A stretch of DNA of 55,597 nt from a virus. Taxonomy: Duplodnaviria > Caudoviricetes. The stretch covers positions 1-55,597 of the IMG/VR virus record IMGVR_UViG_3300014838_000025. The stretch is one strand, 5' to 3'. Position 1 is the stretch's first letter, and each line of letters begins with the position of its first letter. The notes beneath the pieces are model-generated. The model was not told where the DNA came from, ran no database searches, and saw only the letters and a program-made list of their open reading frames with translations. This document shows, piece by piece, positions 9,059 through 20,009 of the stretch. Made by a program: the position numbers and the translations under genes.

Positions 9059-9061
9059 GGG

Positions 9062-9250
9062 CTAATTGTACATCATGTTGGCATAATCCATGAAATCCAA
9101 AATTTGGACTGCTTTCAACTGGTCAAAAAACGAATGATAGCAGCGGAAACAAGCCGAATGATCTTTGTCCCGGCGTGGATGGTGATTCTTCCTACTCTGA
9201 AAAACTGGACGATGCTGCCCGCATTCCGAACAAAGCCATGCACGACACAT
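9062..9250 (-). CDS. Small Cys-rich (Zn-ribbon-like) hypothetical protein
   Basis: CSEC...CFRC pairs; abuts the next gene. Confidence 0.4.
   Translation of the reverse strand: MCRAWLCSECGQHRPVFQSRKNHHPRRDKDHSACFRCYHSFFDQLKAVQILDFMDYANMMYN
9094..9110. repeat. 17-bp palindrome (copy 2)
   Basis: aatccaaaatttggact. Confidence 0.8.
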
Positions 9251-9291
9251 AAGAGCCTCGCATCATAGCTAACATCGTAGCACTAAAAGAG

Positions 9292-9365
9292 TGGAGCGGG
9301 AGACGAGATTTGCACTCGCGCCAAGAGGATGGAAGCCTCTTATGCTGCTTTTACACTACTCCCGC
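9292..9365 (-). tRNA. tRNA-Gly(UCC)
   Basis: Cloverleaf; AGAGG-CUUCCAU-CCUCU; U73 and encoded CCA. Confidence 0.9.
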
Positions 9366-9371
9366 AAACTT

Positions 9372-9447
9372 TGGTCGCTCAGGTTGGCCTCGAACCAACT
9401 ACCTCGCCCTTATCGGGAGCGGGCTCTTCCTGTTGAGCTACTGAGCG
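9372..9447 (-). tRNA. tRNA-Ile(GAU), C33
   Basis: CGCUC-CCGAUAA-GGGCG; CCA. Confidence 0.9.
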
Positions 9448-9506
9448 TCTTGTGATGTGCGTCCTTATCCTATGGCAGTTCGCACATAACAAATCTCCAT
9501 ATGTTG

Positions 9507-9582
9507 TGGTGCGGAAGGAGGGACTCGAACCCCCGAGTGTCTGGGTGTAGACCAGATGCCTTAGCCGCTTGGCGACTTCCGC
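9507..9582 (-). tRNA. tRNA-Val(UAC), C33
   Basis: UCUGG-UCUACAC-CCAGA; A73; CCA. Confidence 0.8.
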
Positions 9583-9583
9583 A

Positions 9584-9661
9584 TGGAGCAGCCGACTGGA
9601 CTCGAACCAGCCTCAATCCATCTACTCTTACCGGATTCGGAATCCGGGGAGATACGGCTGC
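9584..9661 (-). tRNA. Atypical tRNA-Arg(CCG)-like RNA lacking a D-arm, with a long extra region
   Basis: Acceptor GCAGCCG/CGGCUGC, T-arm GCUGG-UUCGAGU-CCAGU, arm CCGGA-UUCCGAA-UCCGG; only 7 nt between acceptor and anticodon arm; CCA. Confidence 0.7.
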
Positions 9662-9668
9662 AAAACTT

Positions 9669-9745
9669 TGGAGCGACCTGTCGGACTCAAACCGACATAC
9701 TCTTCGTTAGGACCGAAGTTCTCTATTCAATTGAGATAAGGCCGC
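9669..9745 (-). tRNA. tRNA-Arg(CCU)
   Basis: CUUCG-GUCCUAA-CGAAG; CCA. Confidence 0.88.
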
Positions 9746-9750
9746 AAAAC

Positions 9751-9825
9751 TGGAGAGCCTACTGGGAATTCAACCCAGATTCATTGCTTAGAAGGCAAGC
9801 GCCCTATGCGTTGGACGATAGGCTC
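9751..9825 (-). tRNA. tRNA-Arg(UCU)
   Basis: UUGC-CUUCUAA-GCAA; CCA. Confidence 0.88.
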
Positions 9826-9826
9826 T

Positions 9827-9901
9827 TGGTGGGTCGCCGGGGAATCCAACCCCGTCCCGGCTCCTTAAAAGGGAGTGATGCAAGCATTACACCTGCGACC
9901 C
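9827..9901 (-). tRNA. tRNA-Lys(UUU)
   Basis: CUCC-CUUUUAA-GGAG; CCA. Confidence 0.88.
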
Positions 9902-9906
9902 CAAAA

Positions 9907-9982
9907 TGGTGAGAGCGGTGGGCAACGATCCCACAGCCTTCCGGGTAAGGGCCGGGTGCTCCGCCGATTGAGCTACGCTCTC
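9907..9982 (-). tRNA. tRNA-Lys(CUU), C33
   Basis: CCGG-CCCUUAC-CCGG; CCA. Confidence 0.85.
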
Positions 9983-9983
9983 A

Positions 9984-10060
9984 TGGTTGCTCTGACTGGA
10001 TTTGAACCAGTGATCTGACGATTATGAGCCGTCTGCTTTAAGCCTCTAAGCTACAGAGCA
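9984..10060 (-). tRNA. tRNA(CAU): elongator Met or Ile2
   Basis: GACGG-CUCAUAA-UCGUC; paired 1:72; CCA. Confidence 0.88.
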
Positions 10061-10070
10061 ATAAACTTTA

Positions 10071-10144
10071 TGGCAGGGACACTCGGACTTGAACCGAGAA
10101 AAACGGTTTTGGAGACCGCTGGTTTGCATTGAGCCTATGTCCCT
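10071..10144 (-). tRNA. tRNA-Trp(CCA)
   Basis: GCGGU-CUCCAAA-ACCGU; G73; CCA. Confidence 0.9.
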
Positions 10145-10160
10145 ACATTTCTCAAAGACC

Positions 10161-10189
10161 AAACAAAACTCCCGGCCTGAGCCGAGAGT
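10161..10189 (-). terminator. Attenuator terminator preceding tRNA block 3
   Basis: ACUCUCGGC-UCAG-GCCGGGAGU followed by UUUGUUU; 5' arm can instead pair with GAGGGUCUGAGUG (10209-10221). Confidence 0.75.
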
Positions 10190-10219
10190 CTGGGTGAAAC
10201 CAAAACTACACTCAGACCC

Positions 10220-10294
10220 TCAAGACACGACTCCCCGCCCCATCCACTTAATCCCGATGGTTATGGTTCTGACGTGTTTGACGGTCTGAGTCAT
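10220..10294 (-). CDS. Leader peptide 3 (24 aa, MTQTVKHVRTITIGIKWMGRGVVS)
   Basis: Short ORF with AGGA SD, ending at the antiterminator; codons match block-3 tRNAs. Confidence 0.75.
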   Translation of the reverse strand: MTQTVKHVRTITIGIKWMGRGVVS

Positions 10295-10333
10295 TGCCTG
10301 TTCCTGCTGTTGAGCACCCTTCGTAGTAAAGAC

Positions 10334-10362
10334 AGCCTACATCACTTCTCGGAATCCTGCAA
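10334..10362 (-). promoter_or_regulatory. sigma70-like promoter for tRNA block 3
   Basis: TTGCAG-17 bp-TAGGCT. Confidence 0.55.
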
Positions 10363-11691
10363 GCGTTCATATTCGACAATGTAATCAACGCACGCTTCGC
10401 TCCAGCCGTCAAGGTGTACCCATGCCTTGTAGCCGATGCCGTTCTGGTAGCTGGCTACGTTGATGAAGTACCCCTTCTTGTCCTTTCCGGGGCCACTGAT
10501 CGACGTGTGCGACTGCTCATCGGTAATGACAATGCAACGGTCGTATCCTTCCTTCGTTGCCACTGCCAAGGCCGCTGCGGTGTCCGTGCCGCCTCTGTGC
10601 TTCGAGGACGTGATTGCATCCCTCAAAGCAAACCCGCGTCGAGGCGGAATCAAGCCTGCCGTTGAGCCGAATACAACGATCTGTACTTCCTCGCAGACCT
10701 CGCGCAAAAGCATTGCCAGAGCACACGCCGCATCCACTCTCCGCAACTCCGACTTGCCGGAAATCTTATCCGACATCGAACCTGAGTTGTCTACTACCAG
10801 AACCGTCTTTCCAGCCAACTTCTCATGGCCTTCCAGACACTTGAACATCGCCTGCTCAAGTTCCGGTTCCAGCGTTGGAGCATACCGCGCAGCCGTGATG
10901 AACCGAAAAGGCAATACCCGATCAGTCTTCATGGCTCTCAGACCCTTACGTATAGCTTCCACGTCCACTCCGGCCTGCTGCATATTGCGAAGGTTCCGCA
11001 GCAATGCCAGAGCACCCAACTTCTCTTCCGCCAGCAACCGCGTGAACGTCTCTTTCTTGTCGGCCCCGCCGCTCAACTGCACTTCCCATGTATCCGGCGA
11101 TTCCAACGTCTTGTCGGCCAGTTTCTTCCACACTGCGGCCTGCTCTTGATCCTTCGGCTTTGCATGGACAAGGAACAACACATCCCGCAACTTCACTGCC
11201 GCCGAGTCAGCGTTCCACTTTGCCAGAGCGTATGCGTCGAACTTCTGGAACGCAGCCGCGAGTCCCTTCTTCATCTGCGCCGTGAGAGACTGCTTCTTCT
11301 CTTTCCAGTACAGCGAGATCAACTCACCCATTTCGTCCGGCCTCTGAACGACTTCGAAGATCGCACCTGAAACCACAGCACGAGTCTGCTTTGTTGCCGC
11401 CCGAATCAGAGCGACTAACAGCACCAAAGGAACATGGCGAAGTTTGAACTTCGTTCTTGCTTCGACTGCAATGTTCGCCACGGTTTCCGCGCCGTCTTTT
11501 TGCTTCAGAATCTCTGCGGTCGTACCCTGAATCCGCTTGGCAATGGATTCTCCATCCTCGTAGAACTCGTCTTCCCACAAGAGGCAAGACATGACGCTCC
11601 GACGAAGCTGCTCAACCGGGTTTGCAAAGACGGCCACTGCCCCTTCATGCGTGTAAAGCAAAACTTTCTTTTCTTTTGTATTGGTTTTCAC
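10342..11691 (-). CDS. rsr: Ro60/Rsr-like TROVE + vWA RNA-binding protein (449 aa)
   Basis: TROVE motifs (FYEDG, LRDVLFLVHAKP, TWEVQLS, ALLRNLRN, VLPFRF) and vWA MIDAS DNSGSM...GGTD...ITDEQ; GTG start 11691 after AAGGAGG. Confidence 0.93.
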   Translation of the reverse strand: MKTNTKEKKVLLYTHEGAVAVFANPVEQLRRSVMSCLLWEDEFYEDGESIAKRIQGTTAEILKQKDGAETVANIAVEARTKFKLRHVPLVLLVALIRAATKQTRAVVSGAIFEVVQRPDEMGELISLYWKEKKQSLTAQMKKGLAAAFQKFDAYALAKWNADSAAVKLRDVLFLVHAKPKDQEQAAVWKKLADKTLESPDTWEVQLSGGADKKETFTRLLAEEKLGALALLRNLRNMQQAGVDVEAIRKGLRAMKTDRVLPFRFITAARYAPTLEPELEQAMFKCLEGHEKLAGKTVLVVDNSGSMSDKISGKSELRRVDAACALAMLLREVCEEVQIVVFGSTAGLIPPRRGFALRDAITSSKHRGGTDTAAALAVATKEGYDRCIVITDEQSHTSISGPGKDKKGYFINVASYQNGIGYKAWVHLDGWSEACVDYIVEYERLQDSEK

Positions 11692-11710
11692 ACTACCCTC
11701 CTTACAACAG

Positions 11711-11734
11711 AAAAGCCCCGCGTCAGCGAGGCTC
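11711..11734 (-). terminator. Terminator-like hairpin between the Y-RNA array and rsr
   Basis: GAGCCUCGC-UGAC-GCGGGGCUU then UUCUGUU. Confidence 0.6.
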
Positions 11735-11741
11735 TCATTTA

Positions 11742-11871
11742 TTCGGGGGAACAAACGGCACAGGAACGTAAGCGTTTTACCGTTAAACTACGTCATCCGA
11801 AGATGCCGGAGAGATTCGAACTCTCAACACTCGCTCCAAAGGCGAAGTACCTGTTACCTACGCCACCCGAA
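11742..11871 (-). ncRNA. Y RNA, YrlA-like, with permuted tRNA domain
   Basis: Terminal stem UUCGGG/CCCGAA, GUGGCG...UACUUC...UGUUCC scaffold; T-arm GAGAG-UUCGAAU-CUCUC, loop-closed acceptor stem, D-arm; adjacent to rsr. Confidence 0.85.
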
Positions 11872-11878
11872 CATCTAA

Positions 11879-11962
11879 GAGCCGAGAACATGTGCAGCCG
11901 GAGGTTTATCTGGAGCCAGTGTTTTGGCGGCTCTGAAGTATCCGACTACGGCACTACGGCTC
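11879..11962 (-). ncRNA. Y-RNA-like RNA (non-tRNA apical domain)
   Basis: GAGCCG/CGGCUC stem, GUAGUG...UACUUC...UGUUCU scaffold. Confidence 0.75.
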
Positions 11963-11971
11963 ACAACTAAA

Positions 11972-12077
11972 GGCCGAGAACATTTGTAACGATTTTGCCC
12001 TACCAACTAGGGCGTCTCTTGATTGCTCAGGAGACTGGAATCGAACCAGTGATGAAATCGTTACTACCACTACGGCT
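11972..12077 (-). ncRNA. Y RNA, YrlA-like, with T-arm/acceptor/D-arm domain
   Basis: AGCCG/CGGCC stem, GUAGUG...UGUUCU; ACUGG-UUCGAUU-CCAGU and GCCC-UAGUUGGUA-GGGC. Confidence 0.82.
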
Positions 12078-12088
12078 CAAACTTTAGT

Positions 12089-12171
12089 CTCCGGGGAACT
12101 CTCGACTTCGGGTATCCCTTTCGGGATTCGGTTTAAGCAATCGAAGTACCCGCCGTCTTTCACCACCGGAG
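12089..12171 (-). ncRNA. Y-RNA-like RNA
   Basis: CUCCGG/CCGGAG stem, GUGGUG...UACUUC...AGUUCC; UCCC-GAAA-GGGA hairpin. Confidence 0.75.
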
Positions 12172-12178
12172 CAATCTA

Positions 12179-12249
12179 TGTCGAGAGAACAAGCGCCACA
12201 GTGTTTTTTCTATTGGAGAGAGAAGTAACTGTGACTTCACTACTCGACA
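12179..12249 (-). ncRNA. Y-RNA-like RNA (minimal)
   Basis: UGUCGAG/CUCGACA stem, GUAGUG...UACUUC...UGUUCU. Confidence 0.75.
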
Positions 12250-12254
12250 ACCTC

Positions 12255-12283
12255 ATTACAGCATGTTGGCAAATTCCTGTCAA
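12255..12283 (-). promoter_or_regulatory. sigma70-like promoter of the Y-RNA/rsr unit
   Basis: TTGACA-17 bp-TGTAAT with TGn extension, 5 nt before the first Y RNA. Confidence 0.75.
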
Positions 12284-12302
12284 GCATCCTGCAAAATAAT
12301 TG

Positions 12303-12377
12303 TGGTCACCCTGGAAGAAATCGAATCCTCGTCTCGACGTTCGTAGCGTCGTGTTCTATCCGTTGAACTACAGGGTG
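12303..12377 (-). tRNA. tRNA-Arg(ACG)
   Basis: CGACG-CUACGAA-CGUCG; CCA. Confidence 0.92.
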
Positions 12378-12382
12378 AAAGA

Positions 12383-12410
12383 TGGTCGGGGTGGTGAGAA
12401 TCGAACTCAC
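12383..12410 (-). pseudogene. 3' part (T-arm, acceptor strand, CCA) of interrupted tRNA-Pro(UGG)
   Basis: GUGAG-UUCGAUU-CUCAC-CACCCCG-ACCA; CACCCCG pairs with CGGGGUG at 12932-12938. Confidence 0.75.
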
Positions 12411-12416
12411 TCGACG

Positions 12417-12764
12417 TTAGAACAGATCATGTTCTATTCTATGGCAATTGGCACATAGAATCTCACACTTCCCAATCTCCTCCAGTATCCTCTCTCTAGT
12501 CCATCCATCGCGTAAAGCGTTGGCAATAGCAAGAACCTTGGACTCCTTATCTTTATGATGGAAGTCAAGAGCGGCTGGATGGTTGAATCCACATCTCGCG
12601 CACTTCATTTCTGATTTCAACTCTCGAAGCCAAATCCGTTTAGATACCCTACGCCGAGCAAGCCTAATAACAGATTCCTTGTTGTATTGAGACTTGTTTT
12701 TCTCGTACCAAGTTCTCCATGCGGCGTTCTTTTGATCTTGCCTTTCTCGCTCTGTCCTTCTCAT
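12417..12764 (-). CDS. HNH endonuclease (115 aa)
   Basis: CARC...LDFHH...CEILCANCHRIEH; TATAAT 7 nt before ATG. Confidence 0.85.
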   Translation of the reverse strand: MRRTERERQDQKNAAWRTWYEKNKSQYNKESVIRLARRRVSKRIWLRELKSEMKCARCGFNHPAALDFHHKDKESKVLAIANALRDGWTRERILEEIGKCEILCANCHRIEHDLF

Positions 12765-12811
12765 GAAACCGATTATACGTCTTGGGATCACTGAATAGTA
12801 TCCTAAAATAT

Positions 12812-12886
12812 TGGTCGGGGCACCGGGAGTCCAACCCGATCCACATGCTCCCAAGGCACGGATGCTGTGCGTCACACTCTACCCCG
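12812..12886 (-). tRNA. tRNA-Pro(UGG), intact diverged copy
   Basis: CGUGC-CUUGGGA-GCAUG; C1:G72, A73; CCA. Confidence 0.85.
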
Positions 12887-12896
12887 ATATTTAAGT

Positions 12897-12938
12897 CATG
12901 ATCCCAAATCATGCGGCCAGCCTTTAGCCCACACCCCG
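12897..12938 (-). pseudogene. 5' part (acceptor strand, D-arm, anticodon arm) of interrupted tRNA-Pro(UGG)
   Basis: CGGGGUG...CAUGA-UUUGGGA-UCAUG with no T-arm following. Confidence 0.75.
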
Positions 12939-12939
12939 A

Positions 12940-13014
12940 TGGTGGTCTGTGGAGCACTCGAAGCTCCCTCTCCGCGTCTTCAGCGCGGCGCTACGCCATC
13001 TCAGCTAACAGACC
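12940..13014 (-). tRNA. tRNA-Phe(GAA)
   Basis: CCGCG-CUGAAGA-CGCGG; CCA. Confidence 0.9.
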
Positions 13015-13020
13015 AAACTT

Positions 13021-13095
13021 TGGTGGACGTGGCCGGGTACGATCCGGCGACCCTAGTTTGCAAGACTAGAATGTTCCCATCTACACTACACGCCC
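13021..13095 (-). tRNA. tRNA-Ala(UGC)
   Basis: CUAGU-CUUGCAA-ACUAG; G3:U70; CCA. Confidence 0.92.
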
Positions 13096-13115
13096 ATTAA
13101 CTTGTCAAAGAACTT

Positions 13116-13190
13116 TGGGGTAGGTAACGGGAATCAAACCCGTGTGTCGAGGGCCACGACCTCGCGTCCTGTCACTGAACGATACCCACC
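13116..13190 (-). tRNA. tRNA-His(GUG), C33
   Basis: CGAGG-UCGUGGC-CCUCG; G-1:C73; CCA. Confidence 0.9.
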
Positions 13191-13198
13191 ATAAAATC

Positions 13199-13264
13199 AT
13201 TAGGCTAGGGTCGGCCTTTTAACACCCTATTTCAAATCCAACATTGGGCCTTGGATCACCTAAT
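13199..13264 (-). ncRNA. Unidentified three-way-junction RNA
   Basis: AUUAGG/CCUAAU enclosing AUCCAA/UUGGAU and UAGGGU/ACCCUA hairpins. Confidence 0.45.
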
Positions 13265-13265
13265 C

Positions 13266-13340
13266 TGGAGCACCCGGACGGATTCAAACCGTCTTCCCCT
13301 CGCTTACAAGGCGAGACATCATCAGCAATGCTTCAGGTGC
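13266..13340 (-). tRNA. tRNA-Thr(UGU)
   Basis: CUCGC-CUUGUAA-GCGAG; CCA. Confidence 0.88.
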
Positions 13341-13881
13341 CTACAAACGTAAACCTCTTGTCACCTTCGGAATCGACGTACAAAAATCGACTCCACTCTT
13401 GAACGCCCATTCCGATACTCCGCAGCATGAACCTGCTCGTGTGTACGCTGCTTGGAAGTGGCCGACGAATCAAAGGCATTCCTGCTTCCTCTGGCGTCTG
13501 GTCGTCCTTCCTCTGATTACAGTCTTTGCAAGCCGCCGTCAGATTCTCCCAAGTGCTCCTCCCGCCTTGCGCCTTCGGGATGATGTGATCCAGCGTCAGA
13601 TGCTCTCCTGAAAACTTGTGACCACAGTAATTGCAGTGATACCCGTCTCTCACGTAAATGTTCTTCCGAGTAACAATCTGCATCCGAACCGGGACGTGAC
13701 GATAAACCCGCAAGCGAATCACGCTTGGCAAGTACACGCCCGGATAAATCATCCTGTCCGTTGCTACCTCTACTACGGCCTTGCCCTTCGTGAGCAACGT
13801 GAGAGCTTTACGGACAGTAACTATCCTTATGGCTTCGTAGCTGGCGTTAAGCAACAGCGTCGGAGTCCGCATTAAGTTCAT
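13333..13881 (-). CDS. HNH endonuclease, McrA-like (182 aa)
   Basis: LLLNASYE...RDGYHCNYCG...LTLDHIIPKAQGGRSTWENLTAACKDCN; SD GAAAGGA. Confidence 0.9.
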   Translation of the reverse strand: MNLMRTPTLLLNASYEAIRIVTVRKALTLLTKGKAVVEVATDRMIYPGVYLPSVIRLRVYRHVPVRMQIVTRKNIYVRDGYHCNYCGHKFSGEHLTLDHIIPKAQGGRSTWENLTAACKDCNQRKDDQTPEEAGMPLIRRPLPSSVHTSRFMLRSIGMGVQEWSRFLYVDSEGDKRFTFVGT

Positions 13882-13896
13882 CACGTCAATCCTTTC

Positions 13897-13972
13897 TGGA
13901 GCTACCGGGGTTACTCGAAAACCCAACCTGTCGCTTACGAGACGACCGCTCTACCACTTGAGCTACGGCAGC
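13897..13972 (-). tRNA. tRNA-Thr(CGU)
   Basis: GUCGU-CUCGUAA-GCGAC; CCA. Confidence 0.92.
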
Positions 13973-13979
13973 ACATCTT

Positions 13980-14054
13980 TGGAGCGGGTTAAGGGAATCG
14001 AACCCTCGTATCGGCCTTGGCAAAGCCGCACTCTACCAACTGAGTTAAACCCGC
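13980..14054 (-). tRNA. tRNA-Gly(GCC)
   Basis: CGGCU-UUGCCAA-GGCCG; U73; CCA. Confidence 0.92.
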
Positions 14055-14060
14055 AAAACT

Positions 14061-14136
14061 TGGCAGGGACGCTCAGAGTCGAACTGAGATAAAACCCGAT
14101 CCAAAGTCGGGTGCCTGACCGCTCGGCCACGTCCCT
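14061..14136 (-). tRNA. tRNA-Gln(UUG)
   Basis: CCCGA-CUUUGGA-UCGGG; CCA. Confidence 0.88.
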
Positions 14137-14143
14137 ACAATTA

Positions 14144-14218
14144 TGGCTCCCCGCGAGAGATTTGAACTCCCATAATGACCTTCAGAGGGTCACGTCCTGC
14201 CAATTGAACGAACGGGGA
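14144..14218 (-). tRNA. tRNA-Gln(CUG)
   Basis: UGACC-CUCUGAA-GGUCA; U1:A72; CCA. Confidence 0.9.
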
Positions 14219-14225
14219 ACATAAA

Positions 14226-14312
14226 TGGCTCAGGCGGCAGGACTCTAACCTGCATTCCCTTGCGGGCACTTCGGTTAACAGCCGAGGCCGATAACATTCC
14301 GGACACACCTGA
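14226..14312 (-). tRNA. tRNA-Asn(GUU) with long variable arm
   Basis: UCGG-CUGUUAA-CCGA; V-arm CCC-GCAA-GGG; U1:A72, G73; CCA. Confidence 0.8.
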
Positions 14313-14324
14313 ATAATCATTTGT

Positions 14325-14367
14325 AAAAGATCAAAGCCTCCAAGCCCTTGTTCCGGCTTGGAGGCTT
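14325..14367 (-). terminator. Attenuator terminator preceding tRNA block 2
   Basis: AAGCCUCCAAGCC/GGCUUGGAGGCUU 13-bp stem then UGAUCUUUU; competing strand GGCUUGGACUCAGU at 14403-14416. Confidence 0.8.
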
Positions 14368-14400
14368 CTCAGTTTTTCCGCTCATCTGCGGGAAAAAATC

Positions 14401-14481
14401 TTACTGAGTCCAAGCCAACACACAATTACCTTGCGGCTGCGCCGTTGGGGTAAATCCGCGATGTGTGGCTCGTGTTCTCAT
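14401..14481 (-). CDS. Leader peptide 2 (26 aa, MRTRATHRGFTPTAQPQGNCVLAWTQ), leaderless
   Basis: ATG 6 nt after the -10 box; codons match all block-2 tRNAs; last codons form the antiterminator strand. Confidence 0.8.
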   Translation of the reverse strand: MRTRATHRGFTPTAQPQGNCVLAWTQ

Positions 14482-14487
14482 GTAAGC

Positions 14488-14516
14488 AACTTACCTGAAT
14501 TCTCTTTACCTGTCAA
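14488..14516 (-). promoter_or_regulatory. sigma70-like promoter for tRNA block 2
   Basis: TTGACA-17 bp-TAAGTT. Confidence 0.75.
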
Positions 14517-14784
14517 ACACTTTCCCAATATTTATTATTCCTGCTCTAAGTCGAGCATACCCATCTGGGTGAATAAGACCACATCCAAGATTACCAAGCA
14601 GGTACATATCTCCGGTAGCGTCCACTTCGTGCCAGTTATGTTTTTCTTTCCGCCACTTCTTCTGAATCCGAACTCGCTTGGATCGTGGAAACCTAAACTG
14701 TTCATTGCGGGTCTTAGGCATAAACGGATCGGCCATGACCTTAATGCCACTAAAGGTGCCGGACAACATATTCGGAAAGTCCAT
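14506..14784 (-). CDS. Hypothetical protein (92 aa)
   Basis: ATG 14784 after GAGAGG; basic motif RFPRSKRVRIQKKWRK. Confidence 0.55.
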   Translation of the reverse strand: MDFPNMLSGTFSGIKVMADPFMPKTRNEQFRFPRSKRVRIQKKWRKEKHNWHEVDATGDMYLLGNLGCGLIHPDGYARLRAGIINIGKVFDR

Positions 14785-14801
14785 TTTCCCTCTCGTAACC
14801 T

Positions 14802-14879
14802 TGGCGTTCCTGATCGGATTTGAACCGATGTTCCCGCGCTGAGAACGCAGTTGCCTAAGCCGGACTAGCAGACAGGAAC
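14802..14879 (-). tRNA. tRNA-Glu(CUC)
   Basis: CUGCG-UUCUCAG-CGCGG; CCA. Confidence 0.88.
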
Positions 14880-14883
14880 GCAA

Positions 14884-14961
14884 TGGTAGGGTAGATGAGA
14901 ATTGAACTCATATTGTCCTGAGTGAAAGTCAGGGTTCCTATTCCATTTAGAAGACTACCCC
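14884..14961 (-). tRNA. tRNA-Glu(UUC)
   Basis: CCUGA-CUUUCAC-UCAGG; CCA. Confidence 0.9.
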
Positions 14962-14967
14962 AAAACT

Positions 14968-15077
14968 TTTTGCAGTGAGCAGGTTTTGTGTCCCTGCCTT
15001 AGAGCGTAAGTAGGTGTTTCACCATCCCCCGCGTAGCTTGCTTTCGCATTCTCAGCCGTAAGACCGTCACTGCAAAA
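14968..15077 (-). ncRNA. Unidentified ~110-nt multi-hairpin RNA within the tRNA array
   Basis: 11-bp closing stem UUUUGCAGUGA/UCACUGCAAAA; hairpins UGC-GAAA-GCA, GGUG-AAA-CACC, GCAGG/CCUGC. Confidence 0.55.
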
Positions 15078-15079
15078 CT

Positions 15080-15155
15080 TGGCGAGGATGAGGAGATTCA
15101 AACTCCCGACTTCCAGCGTGACAAGCTGGCGCTTTTTCAACTAAGCTACATCCCC
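15080..15155 (-). tRNA. tRNA-Asp(GUC)
   Basis: CCAGC-UUGUCAC-GCUGG; G73; CCA. Confidence 0.92.
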
Positions 15156-15160
15156 AAAAT

Positions 15161-15237
15161 TGGTTGCTAGGGTGGAAGTCTAATCCACTGATTTTCGACT
15201 TATGAGGCCGACGAGCCAACGTTGCTCCATCCCAGCT
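15161..15237 (-). tRNA. tRNA-Met(CAU), initiator-like
   Basis: UCGGC-CUCAUAA-GUCGA; A1:A72 mismatch and GAGC/GCUC D-stem; the three G:C anticodon-stem pairs are incomplete. Confidence 0.78.
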
Positions 15238-15265
15238 ACAAAGCATATTACCGATACTTCTAAAA

Positions 15266-15356
15266 TGGTGCAAGTGGGAGAATTCGAATCTCCAGCGTTC
15301 CCGTAAGGAATCTAGTTTTACAGACTAGCGCAGCCAACCGTATCTGCCTCACTTGC
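15266..15356 (-). tRNA. tRNA-Tyr(GUA)
   Basis: CUAGU-CUGUAAA-ACUAG; long V-arm; CCA. Confidence 0.9.
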
Positions 15357-15797
15357 GTGTCGCCTTCTACTCCGTGCTTCACTGCGGCATAGTCGGCATT
15401 CCGTTTGAACTCCACGTCTCTTTGTCCGATCCTTCGTGAACTCAGAAACTAATGCAAAATGCTCCCCTTCACAACACCATGCCATGCCCGGAGGATCAAT
15501 TATTCGCAAATGAGCATTCACATCCATCTTCCGAAGGTCTTCCTTCGTTTTCTCTAAATGACATAATGAACATAACACTTGGGTCTTGGAAAGTTCTTCG
15601 TCTCTACGAACCTTCGACCATGACCATATAGCATGAGTTTCTTTTGTCAGTGGATCAATATGGTCGAGTTCTAAATTTTTTCTTGATCCACATCGAACAC
15701 ATTGCTTTCCTCGAAAATAAGATTCCCTCCGCTCGGCAATCCACTTTCTCTGGTAAGCCCTCATGTACTCCCGTCTTGACTGATAAGTTGAAGACAT
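15318..15797 (-). CDS. HNH endonuclease (159 aa); 3' end overlaps tRNA-Tyr
   Basis: CVRCGSRKNLELDHIDP...QVLCSLCHLEKT plus a C-terminal Cys cluster; TGnTATACT 6 nt before ATG. Confidence 0.88.
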   Translation of the reverse strand: MSSTYQSRREYMRAYQRKWIAERRESYFRGKQCVRCGSRKNLELDHIDPLTKETHAIWSWSKVRRDEELSKTQVLCSLCHLEKTKEDLRKMDVNAHLRIIDPPGMAWCCEGEHFALVSEFTKDRTKRRGVQTECRLCRSEARSRRRHASEADTVGCASL

Positions 15798-15821
15798 GGC
15801 GGAAGTATATCACATGAACAC

Positions 15822-15909
15822 TGGCGGAGACGGAGTGAGTCCAACACTCAAGTCCTTTCGGCACGTCCGGGTTCAAACCGGGTGGGCTTTGCACATGCCC
15901 AACGTCTCC
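15822..15909 (-). tRNA. tRNA-Ser(UGA)
   Basis: CCGG-UUUGAAC-CCGG; V-arm; G73; CCA. Confidence 0.88.
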
Positions 15910-15913
15910 AAAC

Positions 15914-16003
15914 TGGCGGAAGAGGAGAGGAACGATCTCTCAGTACCTTTTGGTACGTCCGATTTCGAATCGGGTGGGCTTGCCAGCCTTGCCCAACTCT
16001 TCC
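15914..16003 (-). tRNA. tRNA-Ser(CGA)
   Basis: CCGA-UUCGAAA-UCGG; V-arm; CCA. Confidence 0.88.
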
Positions 16004-16004
16004 G

Positions 16005-16093
16005 TGGCGGAAGTGGACGGGTACGATCCGTCATGTCCCTTTCGGGTACGCCTGCTTTCCAGACAGGTGAGCCACCAATTGCTCAACACTTCC
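16005..16093 (-). tRNA. tRNA-Ser(GGA)
   Basis: CCUGU-CUGGAAA-GCAGG; V-arm; CCA. Confidence 0.9.
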
Positions 16094-16098
16094 ATAAA

Positions 16099-16188
16099 TG
16101 GCGGAGACGGCTGGGTACGATCCAGCAATACCATTTAAGGTACTCTCGCTTAGCGGGCGAGTGCAATTTCCATTTCTGCCACGTCTCC
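16099..16188 (-). tRNA. tRNA-Ser(GCU), C33
   Basis: CUCGC-CCGCUAA-GCGAG; V-arm; CCA. Confidence 0.88.
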
Positions 16189-16193
16189 AAACT

Positions 16194-16272
16194 TGGTGCC
16201 GATGCCCGGACTCGAACCGGGAAGCCGCTCGTTTTGAGTGAGCGAGGTATACCAAGTTCCCTTCACATCGGC
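16194..16272 (-). tRNA. tRNA-Leu(CAA), short variable loop
   Basis: GCUCA-CUCAAAA-CGAGC; A73; CCA. Confidence 0.85.
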
Positions 16273-16292
16273 ATAATCATTTTTCAAAGAAC

Positions 16293-16368
16293 TGGTAGGG
16301 GCGGAAGGACTCGAACCCTCAAAGACTGGGCCTAGGCCAGCCGTGTTTGCCACTTACACCACGCCCCC
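16293..16368 (-). tRNA. tRNA-Leu(UAG), C33, short variable loop
   Basis: GCUGG-CCUAGGC-CCAGU; CCA. Confidence 0.85.
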
Positions 16369-16373
16369 AAACT

Positions 16374-16448
16374 TGGAGCAGCGGGCGAGAATCGAACTCG
16401 CCAATAACAGTTTTGCAGACTGTCCGCTAACCGATTGCGTTTCCGTGC
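16374..16448 (-). tRNA. tRNA-Cys(GCA), bulged acceptor stem
   Basis: ACAGU-CUGCAAA-ACUGU; U73; 5' strand GCACGG versus 3' strand CCGCUGC. Confidence 0.82.
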
Positions 16449-16451
16449 TCA

Positions 16452-16528
16452 TGGTGCGGGTGAAGGGCATCGAACCCCTAGAACCGGGATTTTAAGTCCC
16501 AGATGTCTACCAGTTGCATCACACCCGC
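16452..16528 (-). tRNA. tRNA-Leu(UAA), short variable loop
   Basis: UGGGA-CUUAAAA-UCCCG; A73; CCA. Confidence 0.88.
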
Positions 16529-16530
16529 AC

Positions 16531-16556
16531 AATAAAAATGCCTCCACTCGGGAGGC
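16531..16556 (-). terminator. Attenuator terminator preceding tRNA block 1
   Basis: GCCUCC-CGAGU-GGAGGC then AUUUUUAUU; competing strand GGGAGGCGUUCGUC at 16587-16600. Confidence 0.8.
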
Positions 16557-16567
16557 TCCGTCAGGAC

Positions 16568-16584
16568 AGTCCAAATTTTGGACT
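16568..16584. repeat. 17-bp palindrome (copy 3, inside attenuator 1)
   Basis: agtccaaattttggact. Confidence 0.85.
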
Positions 16585-16649
16585 CAGACGAACGCCTCCC
16601 TGCCCGATGACAGGCTATACAAATCGGAACTGAGGCATAAGGTCTTCAT
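16584..16649 (-). CDS. Leader peptide 1 (21 aa, MKTLCLSSDLYSLSSGREAFV; in-frame GTG at 16652 is an alternative start)
   Basis: Starts at or near the predicted +1; codons match block-1 tRNAs; last codons form the antiterminator strand. Confidence 0.8.
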   Translation of the reverse strand: MKTLCLSSDLYSLSSGREAFV

Positions 16650-16659
16650 CACGAAACCA

Positions 16660-16688
16660 ACTATCTCACGGCTTAGGCCGAGTGTCAA
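16660..16688 (-). promoter_or_regulatory. sigma70-like promoter for tRNA block 1
   Basis: TTGACA-17 bp-GATAGT with TGn extension. Confidence 0.7.
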
Positions 16689-19600
16689 CTATCCATTCGG
16701 CATGAAAGCCATTTTCGCATATCCCTTGCCGACCACCTGCGGTTTGGTTTCAATACAACTTTCGTCACCCCAAATCTGGAAGTCCGTGGGCGAGGTTGCA
16801 ATGAAGCGAATCATCTTGAACGATACCGCTGGCAAGCGAACTCTCTGCTGGCTGCGAACCCCGGCGCTGTTCGGCAACGTGAAGGTGAAGAACGCTGTGG
16901 ATGACCCATCATAGTAAACATTTACCGTTATCACGCCGGTACTCGTAAACTCCCAGAAGCTATCCTTCGCAATACTGTTAGAGTCCTGTGAAAGCCGCAG
17001 CCAAAAACTGTCCATCACCTTCCGCGTTTTTGCCAGAGGCAGGGCTTTCAAACCAATCTGGTACACATACACGGCTGCGGACACGTTCCCAGTTATCAAA
17101 ACTGAAACTTTGTAATACTCAAAGCCATTTCCAGCATTCAAAGAGAAGTTAACCTTCTCGCGGATTACGGTATTTACGTTGCCAATCAACTGCGTTACTT
17201 GCCCATCCTCGAACATGAGAGAGACTGACACGTTCTGCCCATTCGTGTTTATATCGAGCGTCAGTTCTTGGAAACTTTTAGTCGATGCCGGATTCCCGAA
17301 ATCTGTGTACAAGGTTTGCAGGTTCATCGTGATCGGAACTTGTGTAAGAGAGCCTGATGTATTCCCCTCATCGTAGAACTGATCCTGCCTGTCGATGTGA
17401 ACCAGACCGTTCGAGTCGCCATAAAGCAGACTGTTTGTGTCAACTTCGAGAAATAATGATTGTGCATCAACGTCATCATTGCGCCAGCGTTTGTAATGCG
17501 TGTGCAAGCAGAGACGATGCCGCGCTTCGTCTGTTCCGATGTAGCTCACGTAGACCAGAGTGTTCCAGTACGCGATCCGGGTTTGCGAGAGTTTCGTCTG
17601 ATCGGACTCGACAATCGGACTTGAGCCTACCCCTTGGAAGATGAACTCCAAATCCTGCGTCAAGTACATTGACGCTCCGCCTGCGAAGAAACGTACACCG
17701 TCAATCGCTTGGTAGAACACTCCCTCTTCCGTGACAACCCATCCTAACGGAGCGATGCAGCCGTGCTTAGATGCGGTCGGATAGATTGTCGGACTTGCAT
17801 TTGCGTTGCTCCCCGGCGCTACTGAGAACCATCCTCCCTTCAAGGTTGAGACATAAAGATTACCCTTGATCGCAGCAATTACCGTAATAGGATCGTCAGC
17901 CGTGGTCACAGCTACATACGCCGCTGAACTCACGGCTTGAGGATAGTTTGACGCACTCCAGTACAAACTGTTCGGATTATTCGGATCACCCGCAAACCAG
18001 AACTGCCCGTAGGCTTGCGCCATGATCGTCACTGGTTGACCGTAATTTGCCGTGGCCGAAACCGTTTCCCCTACGGCATGGGTGTTCTGTACAAAGGCCG
18101 TGAAGTAGTTCGAGCCAAGCGAGAGCACAATCACTGTTTCAAAATTGTTGGCAATGGACCCGATCACCCCAATCGAGACTTGCTGCCGCAGAGAGATGCT
18201 TGCCATGCTTGTCGGATAGACGTTCACAACCTGATTCGTCGTCGCTATCCCCGTACTCAAATACGTGTTGACAGGGTTCTGCAACGTGCTCGTCACCGGA
18301 ACATCGTTGGTAAAAGAGATGATGTCGCTCTGCTGGATGTCAACGTCCGTTGACGTGTCCAGATACGTCTGCGGGCTTCCGGTAATCAGAACCTCGTCCA
18401 GCTTGCGGTAGTTGTCGCCTAGCGTTCCCCCTCGGCGGTAGATTCTCAGGCTCGTGGTCTGAGGATCAACCGTTGGAAATGTCATCGTCAGTTGAACTGG
18501 TTGCCGCCTTGGATACACCCAATTCGTATCGAGTGAAGGATTCACATTCGACATCACCATGCAGGGGTTTGACTCGGTTCCATCCACGTTGTTGTAGAAC
18601 GTGAACAGATAATCGTAGGCCACTCCCGCAAACGTGTCCGGCCCTGAGCCTCCAAATAAAATCAGCGAAGCTATATCGACCGTGACTGACGTGTTGTTGT
18701 TCATCACAATCGTTATCTGGTATCCGTTTACAGCACTCCAGTTGAACACAGGATCGTTAAAATCCGCACGGCCTGAGCCAGCAAAATCCGACAACTGCAA
18801 AAGCAGTGGAGTCCACGTATTCAACCCTGTATTCAATTCGGCAATACTGCTTGGACTGCTTACGGTTGTTGAACTTCCGTAGATTCCTAAAGACTCGTAA
18901 AGCAACGCATCTGTCGCGGCTGTCGTCGCCTCTGTGGTGTTGCTGCTTGCCGTGTCGAGAAGATTTTGCAGCGGCCCCTGAGCAATCACCTTGTAAAAAT
19001 AGTCCGAGTTGAAGGTTCCATCCCCACAATCAAACTTGAGAGTGATCGACTGAATCTGCGATGGATCGAATGCAGGCGTAGTCCCTGACGGAGCACCCAG
19101 CCACAAGCCGATGTAGTCCTCCATATTCAGAGTCGTCGGCCATCCGGCTATCGGAAACCCTACAAACGAATTTGTAATCGTTGCCGTGGTCGATGGAGCA
19201 ATGACCGCCTGATTTCCACGAAGTTGAACATTTTGTCCGATAATATGTGTTTTCGTGAAGTTGGCAATAAAGCCTGTCTCTGTCACCCCTAGAACCAAAA
19301 CATACTCAGCATTTGTCGAAACGAATCCGACCGCTAGATATTGGAACAATCCAATCGCTTGCGGATTTGCAACTGACACAGCCTGAATACCCGGAACCGT
19401 AACAGCCGAAGTGAGCGTTGTGCCAACTAGAATGTTGTTTGGATTGAACGTCGTCACGCCTGAAGTCGTGTAGGTAGAACTTACGTAGTAATCCAGAACA
19501 ATCAGATCGGGATTAAGAGCCTCAGCCGCCACAGGGTATTGCGGTTGGAAGATTCCCATCTGCTGCGGTGCTGCTAGAGTTCCGTTGTCCTTTTTCATGC

Positions 19601-20009
19601 CCCCTAAATCTGCCCAAAAAATATAGGGGGTTCCGCTGATGGGAGTTGGGGAATCGTTCTGCGACTGCCACGGGTTTCCGCTCATGCTCGATGAGATTTG
19701 AGCATACGCGCCATTCCCGGCTGCGGGCCTCCGGTACAGTCCCGTACCGCTGCCAGCATAGCGCCATGCGTTCCCATTCAACCCTGCCAGTTTTGCAAGG
19801 GAATGAACCTCTCCCGGCATCGGGTAAACCGTGGCTCCAGACTTGTTTACAAGAACGCTGCCTAATCTCGTTCCAATTGATCCCTCGGCCAGTTCCTCGC
19901 AGTTTGTGAGGGCTAAAAACGTACCTTCAGGCGCGGCATCGTCCACGTTCCGGGCGATTATGCCTTTTGAAGCCATGATAAAATTCGTGTTTTTGTATGC
20001 GGCGTCCAC
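16689..20009 (-). CDS. Large virion protein, tail nozzle / stabilisation-like (1106 aa)
   Basis: Beta-rich; motifs FWFAGDPNNPNSLYWS and HGCIAPLGWV resemble podovirus nozzle/P22 gp10-like propellers. Confidence 0.65.
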   Translation of the reverse strand: MDAAYKNTNFIMASKGIIARNVDDAAPEGTFLALTNCEELAEGSIGTRLGSVLVNKSGATVYPMPGEVHSLAKLAGLNGNAWRYAGSGTGLYRRPAAGNGAYAQISSSMSGNPWQSQNDSPTPISGTPYIFWADLGGMKKDNGTLAAPQQMGIFQPQYPVAAEALNPDLIVLDYYVSSTYTTSGVTTFNPNNILVGTTLTSAVTVPGIQAVSVANPQAIGLFQYLAVGFVSTNAEYVLVLGVTETGFIANFTKTHIIGQNVQLRGNQAVIAPSTTATITNSFVGFPIAGWPTTLNMEDYIGLWLGAPSGTTPAFDPSQIQSITLKFDCGDGTFNSDYFYKVIAQGPLQNLLDTASSNTTEATTAATDALLYESLGIYGSSTTVSSPSSIAELNTGLNTWTPLLLQLSDFAGSGRADFNDPVFNWSAVNGYQITIVMNNNTSVTVDIASLILFGGSGPDTFAGVAYDYLFTFYNNVDGTESNPCMVMSNVNPSLDTNWVYPRRQPVQLTMTFPTVDPQTTSLRIYRRGGTLGDNYRKLDEVLITGSPQTYLDTSTDVDIQQSDIISFTNDVPVTSTLQNPVNTYLSTGIATTNQVVNVYPTSMASISLRQQVSIGVIGSIANNFETVIVLSLGSNYFTAFVQNTHAVGETVSATANYGQPVTIMAQAYGQFWFAGDPNNPNSLYWSASNYPQAVSSAAYVAVTTADDPITVIAAIKGNLYVSTLKGGWFSVAPGSNANASPTIYPTASKHGCIAPLGWVVTEEGVFYQAIDGVRFFAGGASMYLTQDLEFIFQGVGSSPIVESDQTKLSQTRIAYWNTLVYVSYIGTDEARHRLCLHTHYKRWRNDDVDAQSLFLEVDTNSLLYGDSNGLVHIDRQDQFYDEGNTSGSLTQVPITMNLQTLYTDFGNPASTKSFQELTLDINTNGQNVSVSLMFEDGQVTQLIGNVNTVIREKVNFSLNAGNGFEYYKVSVLITGNVSAAVYVYQIGLKALPLAKTRKVMDSFWLRLSQDSNSIAKDSFWEFTSTGVITVNVYYDGSSTAFFTFTLPNSAGVRSQQRVRLPAVSFKMIRFIATSPTDFQIWGDESCIETKPQVVGKGYAKMAFMPNG

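Follow-up and report, generated by a model that had tools for sequence, protein, structure and literature searches.

Organization of the locus

The complete virus record IMGVR_UViG_3300014838_000025 (Duplodnaviria; Caudoviricetes), 55,597 bp long with a G+C content of 51.8%, was analyzed as one stretch of DNA, hereafter referred to as the window. Terminase, portal, and structural proteins were found among its encoded products. The putative attenuator described here occupies positions 16688-16531 on the minus strand, where a sigma-70-type promoter, an open reading frame (ORF) of 21 or 22 codons, an intrinsic terminator, and a block of transfer RNA (tRNA) genes follow one another in this order. 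The first of the 13 tRNA genes of this block (block 1) starts 11 nt past the terminator stem, and the four parts are consecutive, leaving no space for a second promoter between the terminator and the tRNA gene. The features of the locus are as follows:

20009-16689, minus strand: upstream ORF encoding a protein of 1106 aa, its stop codon directly abutting the promoter
16660-16688, minus strand: promoter, with the -35 hexamer TTGACA at 16688-16683, a 17-nt spacer, and the TG-extended -10 hexamer GATAGT at 16665-16660
16584-16652, minus strand: leader ORF, from GTG 16652 or ATG 16649 to TGA 16586-16584
16605-16640, minus strand: putative sensor codons 4-15 (Leu, Cys, Leu, Ser, Ser, Asp, Leu, Tyr, Ser, Leu, Ser, Ser)
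16632-16638, minus strand: candidate region 1, ATGCCTC, which may pair either with the first part of region 2 or, as in the minimum free energy (MFE) fold, with the 3' arm of the terminator
16587-16600, minus strand: region 2, the antiterminator 5' strand GGGAGGCGTTCGTC, covering the last codons of the ORF up to the stop codon
16569-16583, minus strand: small hairpin in the spacer between regions 2 and 3, from the fold
16550-16562, minus strand: region 3, GACGGAGCCTCCC, partner of region 2 or, through its GCCTCC, of region 4
16531-16556, minus strand: intrinsic terminator, a 6-bp stem (5 G-C pairs) with a 5-nt loop, then ATTTTTATT
14802-16528, minus strand: tRNA block 1, with tRNA-Leu(taa) first, starting at 16528

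The promoter was the top promoter-like site in the region 9000-17500 (10 of 12 matches, TG-extended). A sequence-only reading of this DNA had proposed an attenuator here without mentioning the TTGACA/GATAGT site, which is thus an addition of the present analysis. Counted from ATG 16649, the leader ORF has 21 codons; 3 nt before this ATG, an in-frame GTG (16652) is located 7 nt past the -10 hexamer and hence at the predicted transcript start. Judging by this promoter geometry, the messenger RNA (mRNA) of this leader (leader 1) would be leaderless.

Three tRNA blocks headed by elements of the same kind

ARAGORN predicted 29 tRNA genes, all on the minus strand, from 16528 to 9292. A relaxed ARAGORN run and Rfam added Met-cat (15236-15165), Asn-gtt, Pro-tgg, and Lys-ttt, and two further Rfam tRNA hits, whose anticodons were read by eye, correspond to Cys-gca (16450-16376) and Arg-ccg (9662-9587); in relatives, ARAGORN itself predicts both genes at the corresponding positions. 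A weak "Gln" prediction at 11868-11799, in a Y-RNA-like stretch, was excluded from the list. The revised total of 34 tRNA genes is divided among three blocks, with 13, 11, and 10 genes:

Block 1, in order: Leu-taa, Cys-gca, Leu-tag, Leu-caa, Ser-gct, Ser-gga, Ser-cga, Ser-tga, an HNH ORF (15797-15318), Tyr-gta, Met-cat, Asp-gtc, Glu-ttc, Glu-ctc
Block 2: Asn, two Gln, Gly-gcc, two Thr, His, Ala, Phe, Pro, Arg-acg
Block 3: Trp, Met, two Lys, three Arg, Val, Ile, Gly-tcc

The list of block-1 tRNAs given in the earlier reading was confirmed by ARAGORN and Rfam, except that its description of the CAT tRNA as initiator-like found no support. Initiator tRNAs are recognized by pair 1-72 and by GGG/CCC in the anticodon stem; by eye, this tRNA has a G1-C72 pair and lacks the GGG/CCC stem.

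Each of the three blocks is headed by the same kind of element, with a leader matched to its own block. The two sister elements are as follows:

14333-14516, minus strand: element 2, heading block 2, with TTGACA at 14516-14511, a predicted leaderless ORF of 26 codons at 14481-14401, and a terminator at 14368-14333
10166-10294, minus strand: element 3, heading block 3, with an ORF of 24 codons at 10294-10220, AGGA upstream of it, and a terminator at 10191-10166

Correspondence between leader codons and tRNA genes

Codons 4-15 of leader 1 (16640-16605) are as listed in the sequence-only reading, and the GAG codon that it placed further on is codon 18 (16598-16596). None of its five Ser codons and none of its four Leu codons is repeated. 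In leader 1, 13 of the 20 residues belong to the amino acid set of block 1, with a longest in-set run of 12; the corresponding values for the leaders and sets of blocks 2 and 3 are 21 of 25 residues with a run of 18 and 16 of 23 with a run of 11. Of the residues in the long ORFs of the phage, fractions of 0.33, 0.48, and 0.34 belong to the three sets. None of the three run lengths was reached in 200,000 random windows of long ORFs, and among the 390 short ORFs of the window (15-35 codons, both strands) only the leader itself attains its run length. The leaders fit the sets of the other two blocks poorly: 5/20 and 4/20 residues for leader 1, 2/25 and 7/25 for leader 2, and 2/23 and 11/23 for leader 3.

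Codon-anticodon matches were scored with conservative wobble rules (G34 reads C/U, C34 reads G, U34 reads A/G, and A34 reads U/C/A). A cognate codon was present in the own leader for 12/12, 11/11, and 8/9 non-Met tRNAs of blocks 1, 2, and 3 of the window. The earlier claim that every tRNA of block 1 has a readable codon thus holds for all 12 non-Met tRNAs; conversely, under these rules the codon CTC is read by no tRNA of the block. The coverage test was extended to 16 leader/block pairs from six genomes, again for non-Met tRNAs. Own leaders covered 150 of the 161 tRNAs in total, whereas synonymous-codon shuffles, in which the peptide was held and the codons were redrawn from phage usage, averaged 134.3 and reached at most 147 in 5000 trials. 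The coverage of each block by each type of leader in the six genomes was as follows:

Leader 1: block 1, 50/58; block 2, 18/66; block 3, 12/38
Leader 2: block 1, 10/58; block 2, 66/66; block 3, 12/38
Leader 3: block 1, 6/49; block 2, 20/57; block 3, 35/38

Thus, the proposal that the leader lists its tRNA block is upheld by the run and coverage tests, in both of which the match is far beyond chance.

As regards codon order, the first codons of leader 1 (TTA, TGC, CTC, AGT, TCC) track the order of tRNAs 1, 2, 3, 5, and 6. In leader 2 (14481-14401), which begins with Arg, Thr, Ala, His, Phe, Pro and ends with Gln, Gly, Asn, the order is roughly the reverse of the gene order of block 2 (14312-12303), which begins with Asn, Gln, Gln, Gly and ends with Phe, Pro, Arg. 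Both patterns may be due to chance.

Terminator, antiterminator, and predicted folding switch

The terminator described in the sequence-only reading is present, with GCCTCC at 16556-16551, the loop CGAGT, GGAGGC at 16545-16540, and the following ATTTTTATT; the terminator scan agrees, and the hairpin has a folding energy of -9.6 kcal/mol. The last codons of the ORF do pair with its 5' arm, as had been suggested: GGGAGGCGTTCGTC (16600-16587) and GACGGAGCCTCCC (16562-16550) form 7 bp, an internal loop, and 4 bp. The energy of this duplex is -19.7 kcal/mol, compared with a mean of -9.2 for random 44-nt windows, of which 0/1000 were as good. The fold of the 123-nt leader has a z-score of -4.77 against dinucleotide shuffles (0/200 as good).

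The effect of a translating ribosome was modeled with a mask that keeps unpaired all bases within 18 nt on the 5' side and 9-15 nt on the 3' side of the first A-site base, in keeping with the size of the ribosome footprint, and pair probabilities were computed on the transcript from GTG 16652 to the terminator end. In free RNA, the probability of the terminator pairs was 0.00 and that of the antiterminator 1.00. With the A-site on codons 2-12, terminator pairs remained at about 0 and the antiterminator at about 1, while with the A-site on any position from codon 15 to the stop codon the terminator pairs rose to 0.9-1.0 and the antiterminator was low. The switch holds for footprint edges of +9, +12, and +15, the outcome at codons 13-14 varies with the footprint, and the MFE folds agree. 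Constrained folding, named in the sequence-only reading as a way to check the attenuator, therefore yields the predicted switch both in pair probabilities and in MFE structures.

In the folding model, read-through would follow from stalls at Leu4 to Ser12 or Leu13. This narrows the sensor as originally drawn: codons 4-12 or 4-13 act as triggers in the model, whereas codons 14-15 (TCA, TCG) lie close to the antiterminator strand, so that a stall there would probably not be inducing. The expectation that Glu is sensed poorly is consistent with the model, in which a stall at codon 18 leaves the terminator formed, and with the occurrence of Glu in only 4/8 of the homologous leaders.

Conservation and co-variation in related phages

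Relatives were found using the HNH gene within block 2 as an anchor, which led to IMG/VR and metagenome contigs with syntenic arrays (designated L plus a number below). With the 1106-aa protein as an anchor, one relative was detected (45% identity), and its tRNA array lies elsewhere on that contig. The longest exact DNA words common to the arrays of the window and L010 are 18 and 17 nt, which does not suffice for a pattern scan. Homologous leaders occur at the same three places in these related uncultured phages. Identical copies (L056, L057, L058, and L064, all equal to L055, and the type-3 element of L054, equal to that of L053) and the type-3 element of L065, in which the ORF was mis-picked, were dropped from the conservation and swap tests, leaving 8 distinct elements of type 1, 12 of type 2, and 8 of type 3. 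The amino acids occur in the leaders as follows:

Type 1 (n = 8): Leu, Ser, Cys, Tyr 8/8; Asp 3/8; Glu 4/8; Gln, His, Trp 0/8
Type 2 (n = 12): Asn, Gln, Gly, Thr, His, Ala, Phe, Pro, Arg 12/12; Asp, Glu 1/12 each; Cys, Tyr 2/12 each
Type 3 (n = 8): Gly, Thr, Arg, Trp, Met, Lys, Val, Ile 8/8; Pro, Tyr 0/8

The peptide sequences drift among homologous leaders, the amino acid composition is retained, and the reading frame and length (21-28 codons) are kept in all 28 distinct elements.

All 16 elements examined have a terminator at the corresponding position. Pairing between the last 11 codons, the stop codon, and the following 8 nt on one side and the terminator 5' arm on the other was compared with random windows and was significant (p <= 0.05) in 13/16 elements, including 6/6 type-1 leaders; in 5/6 type-1 leaders the pairing partner falls within positions -18 to +4 relative to the stop codon. 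The antiterminator helix sequences vary between genomes. MAFFT alignments of the leaders lose the helix register, and duplexes of cognate and swapped partners were therefore compared in place of a column-wise covariation count. In type 1, cognate partners paired at -18.6 kcal/mol and swapped partners at -14.1 (23 of 20,000 permutations as good), and in type 2 the values were -13.5 and -11.5 kcal/mol (107 of 20,000). For type 3, cognate pairing at -17.2 kcal/mol had no advantage over swapped pairing at -16.5 (2727 of 20,000), while the helix is conserved. Thus, the antiterminator pairing co-varies in types 1 and 2.

The promoter geometry also recurs. The same -35 word lies 35-44 nt upstream of the start codon in 12/16 leaders. 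In 7/16 the distance is 35-36 nt, so that 6-7 nt remain after the -10 hexamer and the start codon falls at the predicted +1; in five others it is 38-44 nt, and two of these (the window and L050) have an in-frame GTG at the -36 place. The remaining four, all of type 3, follow a gene and have no -35 word close by, and some carry AGGA-like words. Among the 16 leaders, none that directly follows a promoter has a Shine-Dalgarno sequence. The pattern of a -35 word, spacer, -10 hexamer, 6-7 nt, and RTG was counted 5 times in the window, where 1.49 occurrences would be expected; leaders 1 and 2 are among the five.

The HNH homing-endonuclease genes of the arrays likewise have no Shine-Dalgarno sequence and show a -10-like hexamer 5-6 nt before the ATG (window 15821-15795; L010 2019-2065, 7713-7727, and 8559-8585). 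By eye, the HNH gene of block 1 seems to have its own TG-extended -10 hexamer and a leaderless start at 15797. This suggests that the HNH genes would also be expressed from leaderless mRNAs, in a host that uses leaderless translation freely.

Proposed mechanism

The element at 16688-16531 has the structural hallmarks of a leader-peptide attenuator, namely the position of the ORF, the codon enrichment, the terminator, and a mutually exclusive antiterminator, with the exception of the 1:2 hairpin; its function is a prediction from these parts. We consider it likely that the element is a ribosome-mediated (leader-peptide) transcription attenuator of a phage tRNA block that feeds back on tRNA supply. 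The attenuator first proposed from the sequence is supported by the folding switch, by the codon match, and by the recurrence of the element at the other two blocks and in relatives with co-variation.

We infer that the leader is translated and that its translation is coupled to transcription. Host RNA polymerase would initiate at the sigma-70-type promoter, the transcript would begin at the start codon or at most 3 nt from it, and a ribosome would translate the leader of 21 or 22 codons while the polymerase continues. With plentiful aminoacyl-tRNAs for Leu, Cys, Ser, Tyr, and perhaps Asp, the ribosome would reach the last codons or the stop codon and cover GGGAGGCGTTCGTC; the GCCTCC/GGAGGC hairpin with its U-run would then form, and transcription would end 3-11 nt before tRNA-Leu. 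If any of these tRNAs were scarce, the ribosome would stall within codons 4-13 and leave GGGAGGCGTTCGTC free to pair with GACGGAGCCTCCC, which would remove the 5' arm of the terminator and allow the polymerase to enter the tRNA genes. The tRNA products would relieve the stall, thus closing a negative feedback loop on tRNA supply. In the same way, the two sister elements would act on the other blocks, and the array would be split into three separately sensed sets.

Contrary observations and alternative explanations

Several observations weigh against this mechanism. The terminator of leader 1, at -9.6 kcal/mol, is weak. In the other 15 elements the terminators are stronger (-14 to -28 kcal/mol) and win in most states, so that at equilibrium the ribosome-mask switch operates only in leader 1 and a kinetic model is needed for the rest; in the classical trp attenuator the terminator likewise wins at equilibrium. 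When only the RNA made before the terminator 3' arm was folded, the 5' arm of type-1 and type-2 elements was 63-97% sequestered with a stalled ribosome and 22-67% with a ribosome at the stop codon, and the type-3 leaders showed little contrast. Asp, Glu, and Met, whose tRNAs are distal and lie behind the HNH gene, are not consistently represented in the leader. The rearranged relative L048 is without such leaders: its promoters stand directly before tRNAs, with no leader/terminator pairs. A crude search of more distant phages with the HNH anchor (33 loci, 4 of them with at least 8 tRNAs) revealed nothing comparable; it yielded 49 candidate short ORFs with a longest in-set run of 8 in one case and of 6 or less in the others. 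Finally, related elements share ancestry, and combined p-values therefore overstate their independence.

Two further difficulties bear on particular alternatives. One is that the untranslated RNA adopts the antiterminator, so that transcription entering from the 1106-aa gene upstream could pass the terminator whatever the tRNA supply. It is consistent with an attenuator that is real but reports general translation status (ribosome availability, coupling, or a global slowdown), with a codon catalogue that adds little specificity, since any failure of leader translation would switch the block on. The same explanation draws on codons 2-3 (Lys, Thr), which also trigger read-through in the folding model, and on the fold of leader 1, in which no convincing 1:2 (anti-antiterminator) hairpin was found; not all described attenuators have this hairpin, which causes termination when the leader is untranslated, and its absence was taken as not disqualifying. 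A general sensor, however, needs neither three leaders in one genome with nearly disjoint amino acid sets, each fitting its own block, nor a codon choice that covers isoacceptors beyond every one of the shuffles (150/161 against a maximum of 147 in 5000). We regard this explanation as unlikely.

The short ORFs could instead encode trans-acting peptides or be conserved small genes, with the hairpin serving as a leaky terminator or insulator and the tRNAs arising from constitutive read-through. The conserved composition, the Leu/Ser/Cys-rich type-1 peptide, which could sit in a membrane, and the strong terminators in relatives would fit such a role. Against this, peptide composition and the match to the tRNA block are preserved despite sequence drift, the ORF end is complementary to and co-varies with the terminator arm, which a trans-acting peptide gene does not need, and the space between terminator and tRNA does not accommodate a second promoter. 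This explanation appears improbable.

The other difficulty concerns translation itself. Leader ORF 1 lacks a Shine-Dalgarno sequence, which 20 of the 32 long ORFs of the window possess (by a crude start call), and its translation would need leaderless initiation in the host, possibly from GUG. Together with the strength of the fold (z = -4.77), this could point to an untranslated structured RNA, such as a site at which tRNA maturation enzymes enter or process the transcript, an antiterminator bound by a protein, or a direct tRNA sensor of the T-box kind, in which the ORF is incidental. Frame, length, and composition are nevertheless kept in the 28 distinct elements, and the start codon lies at the predicted transcript start. 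In addition, a scan of 9000-17000 with Rfam (E <= 1) detected no T-box or other leader family, except for a 20.6-bit ylbH hit at chance level elsewhere, and the element, at about 110 nt, is too short for a T-box. There is little probability that this alternative is correct. An accidental ORF between promoter-like and terminator-like sites can practically be dismissed: short ORFs are common (390 in the window), and the promoter and terminator scans overall were not above shuffles, but chance does not account for the in-set run, the codon coverage, the cognate-versus-swapped pairing, and the conserved composition.

Other features of the array and the genome

Between blocks 2 and 3, a third promoter (TTGACA, 17 nt, TGTAAT) lies near 12283 on the minus strand. 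It is followed by two sub-threshold hits to YrlA-like (Y RNA-like) RNAs at 12079-11967 and 11852-11744 (30.8 and 27 bits; gathering score 69) and by a 470-aa Ro60 homologue at 11754-10342 (TROVE and Ro60 vWA domains; PHROG "RNA-binding protein"). In L010 the same promoter abuts leader 3 directly, and the Ro60/Y-RNA module therefore looks inserted between promoter and leader. Contigs from RNA libraries match 11759-12255 without mismatches. In public RNA libraries, five RNA runs cover shares of 0.07-0.17 of 14200-16760; the contigs of three RNA runs and one unclassified run are scattered on the tRNAs and the Y-RNA-like region, with next to nothing on 16531-16688, and have no bearing on expression, transcript ends, or habitat.

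Within block 1, a 118-nt spacer between Asp-gtc and Glu-ttc (15079-14962) is closed by a long-range stem, GCAGTGA...TCACTGC, and may be an unknown small RNA; the arrays of L013 and L048 also contain spacers of 118-129 nt. In contigs from the RNA libraries of two studies (X1 and X3), 14493 is joined to 14801 with 32 other letters between, which indicates a close variant without the ORF of about 94 codons that separates Glu-ctc from the promoter of leader 2 (14801-14493). The tRNA-Pro(tgg) locus of block 2 (12938-12378, minus strand) looks rebuilt by a mobile HNH gene. It comprises the 5' half of a tRNA-Pro at about 12938-12896 (by eye), a full tRNA-Pro(tgg) at 12886-12812 (relaxed ARAGORN), an HNH ORF at 12875-12417, and a lone tRNA 3' half at about 12411-12381 (by eye).

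In block 3, a 59-nt remnant of an HNH motif (9506-9448) lies between Val-tac and Ile-gat, at the place where a Thr-ggt gene is found in L012, L013, L050, and L048. Four Thr codons (ACT and three ACC) persist in leader 3 of the window, and Thr is present in 8/8 type-3 leaders. The Thr sensor seems to have outlived its tRNA gene at this block. Among the relatives, a permuted transfer-messenger RNA gene is located within the tRNA arrays of L050 (7420-7685) and L048 (545-878; Rfam RF04321, 78.4 and 73.8 bits, respectively), and tRNAs with the anticodon tca in L012 and L050 and cta in L048 are possible suppressor tRNAs.

No Pfam or PHROG family matched the 1106-aa upstream protein, and megablast against the phage GenBank set gave no match to 14000-20000. 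Elsewhere in the window, the large terminase of 1073 aa (47857-44636) matches terminase in its N- and C-terminal parts, with an endonuclease-like insert between the two matches (PHROG endonuclease, residues 453-588), which suggests an intein or an inserted homing element.

Comparison with known regulatory systems

tRNA genes are generally thought to be controlled at initiation, through growth rate and the stringent response, and not by attenuation; to our knowledge, the regulation of phage tRNA genes is largely unknown. The element differs from every attenuator known to us in its putative target (tRNA genes), in its catalogue-like leader, and in its location in a phage. Classical leader-peptide attenuators include trpL, hisL, leuL, and pheL, as well as the multivalent thrL (Thr and Ile) and ilvL (Leu, Val, and Ile). 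With these amino acid operon attenuators the phage element shares a short post-promoter ORF rich in regulatory codons and a terminator 5' arm that alternatively pairs near the ORF end, so that the position of the ribosome would decide the outcome; with thrL and ilvL it would also share the sensing of several amino acids at once. In contrast to them, its target would be tRNA genes, and the sensed molecules would thus be the products themselves. Instead of repeating one codon, the leader represents many isoacceptors by a single codon or a few codons apiece, with 5 different Ser and 4 different Leu codons. A predicted leaderless start, the lack of a clear 1:2 hairpin, and the phage location are further differences. 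The pheST operon of Escherichia coli, with its pheM leader, is also an attenuated component of the translation apparatus that responds to charged tRNA; it senses one amino acid and has a protein-coding target, whereas the phage element would sense many amino acids and control the tRNAs themselves.

In mycobacteria, leaderless polycysteine ORFs (Canestrari et al., bioRxiv 10.1101/834739) are described as short first cistrons that act as sensors, on which a ribosome stalling at the sensed codons remodels the downstream RNA. These sensory ORFs show the geometry that leaderless mRNAs require, and the promoter geometry of the phage predicts a start of this type for its leader. The mycobacterial system controls translation by unmasking a ribosome-binding site, senses a single amino acid, and regulates genes of cysteine metabolism, unlike the phage element, where the next genes are tRNAs and an intrinsic terminator lies between.

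T-box riboswitches similarly match the translation apparatus to tRNA charging through a choice between terminator and antiterminator, although they bind uncharged tRNA directly, via a specifier codon and the T-box sequence, without a ribosome. With no T-box match in the Rfam scan of 9000-17000, the element described here is not a T-box. Full-text literature searches found no published description of tRNA-gene attenuation; subscription journals, including the papers of the 1980s on the tRNA region of phage T5, and supplementary files were outside their reach. The attenuator survey PMC2965389 contains 0 occurrences of "tRNA gene" or "tRNA operon."

Significance for phage biology

More tentatively than for the attenuator itself, we suggest that the three leaders may constitute a sensor of decoding capacity that splits the genetic code in three, by which the phage would detect depleted tRNA families and replenish just those, as an inducible and self-limiting counter-defence. 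Such a counter-defence would consist of no more than a promoter, some 25 codons, and a hairpin. Possible causes of depletion are the codon demand of the phage, host shut-off, host anticodon nucleases, and other tRNA-cleaving defence systems; anticodon nucleases and loss of host tRNAs as triggers are ideas found in the literature.

If the proposed mechanism is true, it would be the first case known to us of attenuation that feeds back directly on tRNA supply, and it would explain the division of large phage tRNA arrays into blocks. As a natural sensor of small size, the element would report how well individual codons can be decoded. It would also provide a direct, testable link between phage tRNAs and the depletion or cleavage of host tRNAs: depleting one tRNA family should induce only the block whose leader has its codons.

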